Source: Chlamydiales bacterium (lineage in GTDB: Bacteria > Chlamydiota > Chlamydiia > Chlamydiales > JAAZZY01). Taken from it: a stretch of DNA of 64,000 nucleotides. Position 1 is the first letter of the stretch. Every line of letters begins with the position of its first letter. Of the stretch, positions 12,544-13,047 are shown piece after piece. The DNA lies in contig CBDBKM010000011.1 in assembly GCA_965206695.1 (NCBI GenBank), positions 224,001-288,000 of the forward strand. The letters are read 5' to 3'. A model generated the notes under the pieces. It was not told where the DNA came from and did not search any database. It saw only the letters and a list, made by a program, of their open reading frames with translations. The position numbers and the translations under genes are program-made.

Positions 12544-12613
12544 TTTTATCACAATATTCTATTGAATTTAGAAACGTTGATTGATTGCATCTTGAACCTT
12601 TATAATCTATGAA

Positions 12614-12908
12614 GACTGCGTAAATGCAGTCGACTCCCAAACTCGCTTGCAACGGCAGAGAGTTTGAAAGGCATTTAATTTTACTTGAGGCTATGCGGTC
12701 TCTTCCTTTATTAAAATAACCTATTGTATTAGAGCATTGTTGATTTTTAAATCTGATCCGCTGCGTGAGCGGTAGAGTGCCTGTGGAGTTGTAAATAATT
12801 CCTGAGCGTCGCCCAATATGGGTTAGCAAAGACGGAGCAGCGAAGAAGCAGGAAAAGAGCGGTGAGTCAAACACGATGTTTGGCGAGATCATAAGCCTCC
12901 AACACGAA
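12614..12908 (+). mobile_element. Non-coding mini-element family 2, copy 1 (about 295 bp)
   Basis: Homologous to 59802-60126 (minus); removal gives TAT GAA|GAC TTA in frame with the rlmD remnant. Confidence 0.8.
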
Positions 12909-13047
12909 GACTTAGATAATTACTTGATTAGGCTTAATATCTCATCTAATGCCTTCTTTCAGCCTAACACACGTCAAGCCCGGCTTTTATACTCCGCTGC
13001 TCTAAAACCGCTAGATAAGCCAATTAAAGGCTTTGTTTATGATTTAT

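Follow-up and report, generated by a model that had tools for sequence, protein, structure and literature searches.

Two copies of a gene-less repeat

The DNA analysed here (the window) is a stretch of 64,000 nucleotides (nt), positions 224001–288000 of contig C11 in a chlamydial genome (G000) of 2.46 Mb, the assembly of which comprises 13 contigs and is 93.8% complete. It contains two copies of a protein-less repeat, which an earlier note on the same DNA had proposed to be a non-autonomous, guide-RNA-bearing mobile element. Copy 1 is intergenic, follows a terminator-like hairpin at 12517–12541, and spans window positions 12614–12908 on the forward strand (GACTGC...CAACACGAA); copy 2 spans 59802–60126 on the reverse strand. 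The ends of both are uncertain by 1–4 nt. BLASTN aligned the two copies with 71% identity over 334 columns (E 4e-41), so their likeness is not due to chance. In a MAFFT pair alignment, both 5' hairpins, ccg(c/t)tgcgtga(g/a)cgg, gcctg(t/c)ggag, caggaaaagagcggtgagtcaaacacgatgtttgg and gatcataagcctccaacacgaa formed long identical blocks. The motifs named in the earlier note were identical or differed by single letters, and the AT-rich middle and one internal loop had diverged. Both copies and their motifs were thus confirmed as first described, as was their position directly after ATGAA or ATGGA.

The genome as a whole holds eight full-length copies in two subfamilies, plus fragments. Subfamily A consists of six copies of ~294 nt that are 88–91% alike, copy 1 among them, and subfamily B of two copies of ~325 nt, including copy 2; copies differ by 9–12% within subfamily A and by ~30% between the subfamilies. 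A copy with an internal deletion lies at C1:103374–103607, and a copy of a third subfamily, split by a nested insertion, at C4:6019–6830 (locus L012). The remnants are one 3' fragment, one 5' fragment and two short right-end remnants. The flanks of the 11 complete or near-complete copies examined were all different, indicating that the copies arose by insertion and not by segmental duplication. No flanking target-site duplication was seen at these 11 copies. As the earlier note had stated, no terminal inverted repeat was found within 12600–12915; without terminal repeats, the repeat is not a classical miniature inverted-repeat transposable element (MITE).

TnpB-carrying relatives

The earlier note had called for a search for gene-containing elements with the same ends, and such elements were found. 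About 15 TnpB-carrying elements in the genome (hereafter T elements) have the omegaRNA architecture, the left-end hairpin and the left-flank motif (C-N-W-T-G-R-A) of the repeat. They are ~1.36 kb long (e.g. C8:164729–166093), with tnpB as the sole gene. They start with TGAA followed by GACTGCACGGATGCAGTCGACCC, that is, with the flank and hairpin of the repeat, and the left-end homology extends over ~70 nt. The junction CAGGAAAAG(C/A)GC and an end in ...CGA(A) are also common to both, T elements ending in ...GCCGCCGUCUCCGA or ...CUCGGA. The ends and the scaffold of the repeat are therefore homologous to those of the T elements.

The T-family TnpB open reading frames (ORFs) encode 376–380 amino acids (aa) and are intact at four loci; one intact ORF, of 379 aa, is located at C8:164836–165975. 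The protein retains the motifs GIDLGL, AVEDL and HDRD (RuvC D-E-D) and two CxxC motifs (zinc finger). It aligned end to end with the ISDra2 TnpB structures 8H1J/8BF8 (208 bits, E ~1e-60) and scored 116 bits against the IS607 TnpB of ISFba1 (8IAZ, identity confirmed). On NCBIfam it scored 337 bits with IS200_TnpB and 164 bits with IS607_TnpB, and its nearest database relatives were at most 53% identical. ISDra2 thus has the closest solved TnpB, and its scaffold overlaps the 3' end of tnpB, as in T elements (Karvelis et al. 2021, PMC8612924). The earlier note had also assigned the element to a different TnpB class from that of the IS605-type elements in the window; in line with that claim, a comparison over 119 aa gave only ~37% identity between T TnpB and a relic of the class to which the IS605-type TnpBs belong.

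An 820-bp "long version" of the repeat, the third-subfamily copy at C4:6019–6830, was considered as the parent and rejected, since the TnpB relic between its ends belongs to the nested insertion. This insert is a TCAA-ended, internally deleted IS605-type element of a different TnpB class that has a left end of its own, contains a TnpB relic of 143 aa and terminates at its right end in GTCAA.

A gene-less intermediate, E1 (C11:157703–158061), resembles T elements in its left end and in having two 3' hairpins, and the repeat in its ...CAUAAGCCUCCAA tail; one whole and two partial copies (C11:427904 and C10:347454–347602) were found. E1 can be read as a second type of gene-less derivative, formed directly from T elements.

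Since the omegaRNA architecture, the left-end hairpin and the left-flank motif are also found on the T elements, we consider it likely that the repeat is a protein-less, non-autonomous derivative, similar to palindrome-associated transposable elements (PATEs) or MITEs, of the TnpB-only T family in the same genome. It would retain from its parent a left end of ~75–90 nt with the invariant terminal hairpin GACTGCAcggaTGCAGTC, an AT-rich remnant at the former position of tnpB, and a right end of ~165 nt encoding a TnpB guide-RNA scaffold of the RAGATH-18 type.

The predicted guide-RNA scaffold

The RAGATH-18 motif is the core of the right-end element RNA (reRNA, or omegaRNA) of IS607-family TnpB. 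This RNA consists of a 5' flank of ~37–50 nt, the motif of ~73 nt, a 3' flank of ~60–64 nt and a flank-derived guide (Ren et al. 2024, Cell Res, PMC11061315). No Rfam family matched anywhere in the window at gathering thresholds. At relaxed thresholds copy 1 matched RAGATH-18 (RF03064) over the full model (1–71) with 31.3 bits (E 5.6e-4, below the gathering score). In the Rfam check suggested by the earlier note this was the sole notable match, and no intron family appeared. A scan of the genome with RAGATH-18 gave 17 matches at E<=1. Eleven of these fell in the right ends of T-type elements, and ten of the eleven coincided with the 3' end of a tnpB gene or relic of the T family; one T element reached the gathering score of 44.9 bits, and the ten others scored 23–42 bits. 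A scan of the control genome of D. radiodurans gave no match.

The outer 5-bp stem, the GGA/GAAGAA-type internal loop and the inner stem of RAGATH-18 were all present in the repeat, as was the layout of a 5' flank hairpin, the core, a 3' flank up to the element boundary and then variable flank. Among 29 right ends, conservation stopped at ...CGAA or ...CCGA, and nothing was common past 12908. We counted base pairing in a MAFFT alignment of 19 related scaffolds (eight repeat copies, E1 and ten T elements). The 22 proposed pairs were formed in 93.9% of 410 cells, compared to 27–43.5% with slid partners, although the counted structure was drawn from the very sequences on which pairing was counted. 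Eleven of the 22 pairs changed on both sides, and none of 500 shuffles reached the observed pairing or covariation score.

The change from CCGCT/AGCGG to CCGTT/AACGG, reported in the earlier note as compensatory, is so indeed, and this helix (helix 1) also covaries in the relatives. Three of its five pairs changed on both sides (CG/UA, AU/UA) among the 19 sequences, which carried CCGCU/AGCGG, CCGUU/AACGG, CCGCA/UGCGG or CUGCA/UGCAG. Helix 2 is a predicted pseudoknot of four pairs that links the loop of the 5' hairpin to the last four paired bases of the scaffold. A pseudoknot in this position also belongs to the RAGATH-18-type reRNA of TnpB (Ren et al. 2024, PMC11061315). In silico it was 93.1% paired, with two compensatory pairs (CG:12/GC:6 and AU:9/UA:7); loop and tail read CGUG/CACG in the repeat and GGAG/CUCC or CGAG/CUCG in T elements. 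CACG occurs twice in the right end, within a direct repeat (TCAAACACGA and TCCAACACGA at 12867–12876 and 12898–12907, 31 nt apart), so an alternative pseudoknot pairing is possible. A search for repeats common to the left and right ends reported only this right-end direct repeat and no left/right pair. Helices 3 and 4, the RAGATH-type outer and inner stems, were 95.8% and 96.8% paired; the inner stem is GUUGU/GCAGC in the repeat versus GCGUC/GACGU in T elements, four of its five pairs having changed on both sides.

Covariance model R1, derived from this alignment, gave 28 matches in the genome, of which 15 were T-type, two E1-type and 11 of the repeat. Copy 2 was matched at C11:283802–283975 (reverse strand; 110 bits, E 8e-26), a sequence also used to build R1. 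We conclude that the 3' ~165 nt of the repeat is, as predicted from sequence, a TnpB omegaRNA/reRNA scaffold. This finding, together with the ends shared with TnpB-carrying relatives, supports the guide-RNA-bearing, non-autonomous nature first proposed for the element.

The reRNA of ISFba1, like the repeat, has a 5' flank hairpin, a RAGATH-18 core of ~71–75 nt, a 3' flank with stem-loops and a flank-derived guide as described by Ren et al. (PMC11061315), and the conserved letters CCUGUGGAG...GAAGCAGGAA are common to RAGATH-18 and the repeat. In contrast to that reRNA, with its 3' flank of ~64 nt and two stem-loops (PMC11061315), the repeat has a 3' flank of 54 nt with one hairpin; it also has no adjacent TnpB, and its score is below the Rfam threshold. 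The related TnpB of the genome is closer to that of ISDra2, and no serine TnpA is found in the assembly. Ren et al. report RAGATH-18 exclusively with IS607 TnpB and list seven host phyla, among which that of the repeat does not appear (PMC11061315).

The guide of TnpB comprises ~16–20 nt of flank past the right end (Karvelis et al. 2021, PMC8612924; Ren et al. 2024, PMC11061315). None of 22 guides predicted on this basis, that of copy 1 included, had a second genomic target with a TGRA motif at 0–1 mismatch. In three of the 22, a second genomic 16-mer was preceded by TGRA, each with two mismatches. These numbers bear on the idea that the copies are independent genes for regulatory small RNAs with no link to transposition, or omegaRNAs that were co-opted for gene regulation as in TldR-like systems. 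Such a role would agree with the conserved RNA structure and with the position of several copies in intergenic regions beside genes; it fits poorly with the near lack of second targets, with a left end, flank motif and right end common to TnpB elements, and with the nuclease motifs kept by the resident TnpBs, and we regard it as very improbable.

The left end and its flanking motif

The motif to the left of the element was examined at 24 left ends of repeat copies and TnpB-carrying elements. C occupied position -7 in 23 of the 24 (against a genomic C frequency of 0.178) and T position -4 likewise in 23. G at -3 and A at -1 were found in all 24, and -2 was A in 20 and G in four. The motif is nearly palindromic (TTCA-W-TGAA) and resembles the right end UCUCCGA of T elements; GA/GAA is common to the motif and the right end. 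Its length of 7–9 nt exceeds the 4–5 nt of the transposon-associated motifs (TAMs) described for TnpB.

Hairpin 1 was almost invariant across the repeat subfamilies and the T elements, although the scaffolds have diverged strongly, and we infer that the agent mobilising the family may recognise this hairpin. Over 11 copies, the pairs of the left-end hairpins were formed in 93.2% of 264 cells, compared to 29–40% in slid controls. Only three pairs were compensatory. G.U wobbles were numerous in the hairpins and confined to the sense strand, indicating that the folded species is either sense-strand RNA or single-stranded DNA. Minimum-free-energy (MFE) folding of the left end was marginal against shuffles (z -1.68). 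The AT-rich spacer was poorly conserved between the subfamilies; by eye, an extended -10-like sequence (TG-N-TA-N-AGT) was conserved in most of the aligned copies. The features of both copies are listed in Table 1.

Table 1. Positions of the observed and predicted features of the two repeat copies, in window coordinates
Feature	Position	Strand	Remarks
Left-flank motif, copy 1 (ATCTATGAA)	12605–12613	+	Candidate TAM/target site; consensus (A)(T)C-N-W-T-G-R-A
Left end, copy 1	12614–12700	+	Hairpin 1 12614–12631, hairpin 2 12638–12666, third weaker hairpin
AT-rich spacer, copy 1	12701–12757	+	Position of tnpB in parent elements
omegaRNA 5' hairpin (helix 1), CCGCT-gcgtg-AGCGG	12758–12772	+	Loop 12764–12767 is the 5' strand of the pseudoknot
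RAGATH-18-like core	12780–12854	+	Outer stem CCUGU/GCAGG, GGA...GAAGAA internal loop, inner stem
omegaRNA 3' flank	12855–12908	+	54 nt; hairpin CAAACA-cga-TGTTTG 12868–12882; right end ...CAACACGAA
Pseudoknot 3' strand, CACG	12903–12906	+	Pairs with the loop of the 5' hairpin
Predicted guide, copy 1	12909–12924	+	From the TnpB reRNA model
Left-flank motif, copy 2 (GCCCCATGGA)	60127–60135	-	
Spacer and left end, copy 2	59976–60126	-	Hairpin 1 (GACTGCAAGGATGCAGTT) at 60109–60126
omegaRNA scaffold, copy 2 (subfamily B)	59802–59975	-	Model R1
Predicted guide, copy 2	59786–59801	-	From the TnpB reRNA model; flank unique in the genome

Evidence of insertion

One subfamily A copy, A4 (C10:392871–393164), interrupts an IS605-type element, and ~20 paralogs of that element run across the same point uninterrupted. 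This is the empty site that the earlier note had suggested looking for, and it records a past insertion of the repeat. The filled site is 298 nt longer than the empty one, that is, by the 294-nt GACTGC...CGAA element plus 4 nt. On the most parsimonious reading, the extra nucleotides would be a GAA to the left of the element and an A to its right, with AATT and AGAAAG bordering the insertion point. At -7/-6, the filled copy has CC where the paralogs have AA. Two readings fit this single case, in which the paralogs are ~79–88% identical to the flanks: part of the "TGAA" travels with the element, or the interrupted insertion sequence (IS) copy was a variant already bearing an acquired motif. No empty sites were found in the genome for 16 other elements. 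In one DNA run (contigs only), neither a joint across the element nor an informative difference was found.

The earlier note had pointed out that removing copy 1 leaves an in-frame IYE/DL. As arithmetic this is true, but it is meaningless as a reading frame, because a TGA at 12593–12595 lies four codons upstream with no start between. The frame bears on a rival explanation, namely that the repeat is a self-splicing group I or II intron or an IStron-like element, since removal of 12614–12908 joins two stretches in one frame. The left part of the repeat measures ~90 nt, which is too short for a group I core. No intron family was matched at E<=10 over 12450–13050, nor at gathering thresholds over the window, and copy 1 is intergenic, the other copies lying in unrelated contexts. 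IStrons that combine group I introns with TnpB/omegaRNA do exist (Zedaveinyte et al., bioRxiv 10.1101/2023.11.20.567912). One of them, the IS607-type CboIStron described there, differs from the repeat in carrying a group I intron and a serine TnpA and in having a G-rich, not A-rich, motif. An intron origin of the repeat is scarcely conceivable on this evidence.

Search for a transposase

The earlier note had placed the autonomous partner outside the window. TnpB-carrying partners do exist elsewhere in the genome, but they carry TnpB only, and no TnpA-bearing form of the family was found anywhere in the assembly. Resolvase (PF00239) matched twice in the genome, a Tn3-type fragment and a 520-aa serine recombinase, neither of them at the ends of the repeat or of T elements. 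The match at C10:159705, 0.6 kb from a right-end fragment of the repeat, was considered as an IS607 TnpA and rejected, as it is a Tn3-type fragment beside the start of a Tn3 transposase. At this locus (L037, C10:158205–161435), a 126-aa ORF corresponding to a truncated Tn3-type resolvase is followed by the N-terminus of a Tn3-family transposase; an IS630 transposase and 35 nt left over from a right end of the repeat lie next to the locus. Y1_Tnp gave 55 matches in the genome, including genes beside the TnpBs of a TCAA-ended IS605-type family with unrelated ends. Of seven further left-end loci, four ran into the start of tnpB (one intact, three broken) and three were cut off by other insertions.

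Related loci were not found with a single T TnpB as query. A search with an alignment of 14 TnpB proteins yielded 80 actinobacterial and cyanobacterial loci (L062–L141) with 37–45% identity. Among 106 ORFs upstream of 56 related TnpB loci, none matched Resolvase or Y1_Tnp, indicating that the neighbours of the relatives do not reveal the transposase. At 17 of the 80 related tnpB genes, R1 gave weak matches (19.5–30.6 bits) exactly at the 3' end, showing CCGC...GCGG and CUGUGGAGC...UGAA(A/G)CAG(A)AA; the scaffold type thus extends, faintly, to actinobacterial and cyanobacterial relatives. None of 20 related TnpB loci scanned with Rfam gave a match at gathering thresholds, the RAGATH-18 cut-off included.

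It is possible, if doubtful, that the repeat is a classical PATE of the IS200/IS605 type, moved as single-stranded DNA by a Y1 TnpA in trans, and not of the IS607 type. The bit scores of T TnpB against the ISDra2 and ISFba1 proteins and on NCBIfam point this way, as do the sense-strand G.U (G.T) wobbles of the left-end hairpins and the 55 Y1_Tnp matches. The motif WTGAA is also A/T-rich, like the TTGAT of ISDra2 (PMC8612924), whereas G-rich TAMs are reported for IS607 TnpB (PMC11061315; bioRxiv 10.1101/2023.11.20.567912), among them AGGAG and GAGGG in Ren et al. 2024. Against this, ISDra2 carries a Y1 tnpA (PMC8612924), which the repeat and the T elements lack. The Y1 genes belong to the TCAA-ended family, the end hairpins of which are unrelated to GACTGC...GCAGTC. 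The left- and right-end hairpins of the repeat and T family are unlike each other, whereas IS200/IS605 ends carry similar hairpins. Furthermore, hairpin 1 abuts the boundary and leaves no room for the guide tetranucleotide expected from the IS608 model. The omegaRNA core is RAGATH-18-like, a type that Ren et al. report only with IS607 TnpB (PMC11061315). The right end repeats the final bases of the flank motif (GAA/GA), as in CboIStron, where the 5' motif and the scaffold end likewise share their terminal nucleotides and differ upstream (TGGG/UCGG in CboIStron; TGAA versus CGAA in the repeat or CCGA in T elements here; bioRxiv 10.1101/2023.11.20.567912). The upstream neighbours of the related TnpB loci do not decide the matter.

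We also considered whether the T elements and their gene-less offshoots could be a separate lineage of insertion sequences, one that needs no TnpA of its own to spread. No transposase of the family was found in the genome or beside the 56 related TnpB loci, the near-palindromic insertion motif mirrors the right end of the element, and one insertion seems to have brought part of the motif along. Mobility might then come from copying triggered by TnpB and omegaRNA, or from a host or unrecognised recombinase that reads the invariant terminal hairpin. We hold such a lineage to be improbable.

Proposed role of the repeat RNA

For the repeat as a derivative of the T family, the following course of events may be proposed. 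Transcription through the right end would include the adjacent 16–20 nt of flank as the guide, and one of the four intact T-family TnpB nucleases could bind the repeat RNA in trans. After excision, the TnpB complex would cut the "empty" joint of left-flank motif and right flank, and recombination after the cut would restore the copy, as has been described for the retention of IS605 and IS607 elements. Mobilisation itself would need a transposase acting in trans on the shared left end, and none is identifiable in the assembly. The PATE-like IS200/IS605 elements described by Meers et al. (2023, PMC10055086) are similarly protein-less, have the ends of TnpB-bearing relatives in the same genome, provide an omegaRNA that has to act in trans and presumably also depend on mobilisation in trans. 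Unlike them, the repeat has ends and an omegaRNA of another family, no tnpA with matching ends, dissimilar left and right hairpins, and a flank motif of 7–9 nt.

Several results weigh against this interpretation. The RAGATH-18 score of copy 1, and those of the five repeat copies listed in the genome scan (21.3–32.6 bits), are all below 44.9 bits, and the pairing counts share the circularity noted above. MFE folding of the copy 1 scaffold was no better than that of shuffles (z -0.48) and lacked the RAGATH outer stem. The 3' flank of the repeat has one hairpin, compared to two in T elements, and the two flanks are only weakly alike (nhmmer E 4e-4 to 0.08). A sigma-70 promoter scan found no promoter on the forward strand inside copy 1. 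The filled site of A4 exceeds the element by the 4 nt mentioned above. In the 93.8%-complete assembly there was neither an IS607-type serine TnpA nor a TnpA-bearing autonomous form, and none of the seven further left-end loci had a tnpA.

Some of these results equally suit the view that the repeat is derived from T elements of a family now extinct here, its RNA being neither made nor bound and its copies decaying relics. No tnpA of the family remains in the assembly, many of the T copies are cut short or carry IS630 or IS605 insertions, the repeat copies have diverged to the extent given above, no polymorphic (joined) form was present in the DNA run (contigs only), and the scan found no internal promoter. 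The divergence between the subfamilies, in contrast, is concentrated in the spacer and the loops, and the helices are kept by compensatory changes, indicating selection on RNA or strand structure during the spread of the family; four T TnpB ORFs are still intact. Past selection is no proof of present activity, but we regard decayed debris as a rather unlikely reading.

Genes and elements beside the two copies

Just upstream of copy 1, window 12015–12541 (forward strand) contains a 158-aa ORF rich in KKAAKRKPAKK repeats, resembling a chlamydial histone-like protein, and after it the terminator-like hairpin mentioned above. About 130 nt downstream of copy 1, at 13030–13100 (forward strand), begins a TCAA-ended IS605-type left end (tttatgataatccagcgggaaaaccctttgc...) that matches those of a 383/395-aa TnpB class elsewhere in the genome; copy 1 thus has a predicted guide that points towards another transposon. 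Upstream of copy 2, at 60230–60330 (reverse strand), is the 3' part of an IS630-type transposase frame (Y-S-P-D-L-N-P, by eye), and the left flank of this copy is partly repeated elsewhere in the genome (10 matches). IS630 copies were also seen inserted in other elements of the genome. With 66 matches to the TnpB zinc ribbon in addition to the 55 Y1 TnpA matches, the transposon load is extreme for 2.46 Mb.

Distribution and significance

A DNA search gave no match in eight genomes of the taxonomic family of the host, and R1 gave no matches in 149 other genomes of the order (17 candidates per genome scored, strict filters; one genome not scored). Because it was not found in these 149 genomes, the family was probably acquired recently and then multiplied in a single transposon-rich genome. 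A literature search of listings, abstracts and selected passages gave no description of such an element in Chlamydiota; the supplementary tables of Ren et al. 2024, on RAGATH-18 loci that lack TnpB, may already include comparable orphan elements. The kind of element, a gene-less PATE with a guide RNA, is already known, and the family and its host are new. Noteworthy are the host phylum, the trimming of the scaffold, the long flank motif and the fact that a TnpB resembling that of ISDra2 goes with a RAGATH-18-like scaffold.

For annotation, the family explains ~28 structured non-coding loci in this genome. Through it, the known range of RAGATH-18-type guide RNAs of TnpB now includes an environmental chlamydia and a TnpB nearer to that of ISDra2 than to IS607 enzymes. 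The repeat offers a clear natural case of a guide-RNA gene that stands apart from its nuclease. The predicted scaffold of the repeat, trimmed to ~165 nt with a single 3' hairpin while the core and pseudoknot are kept, shows what evolution treats as dispensable.

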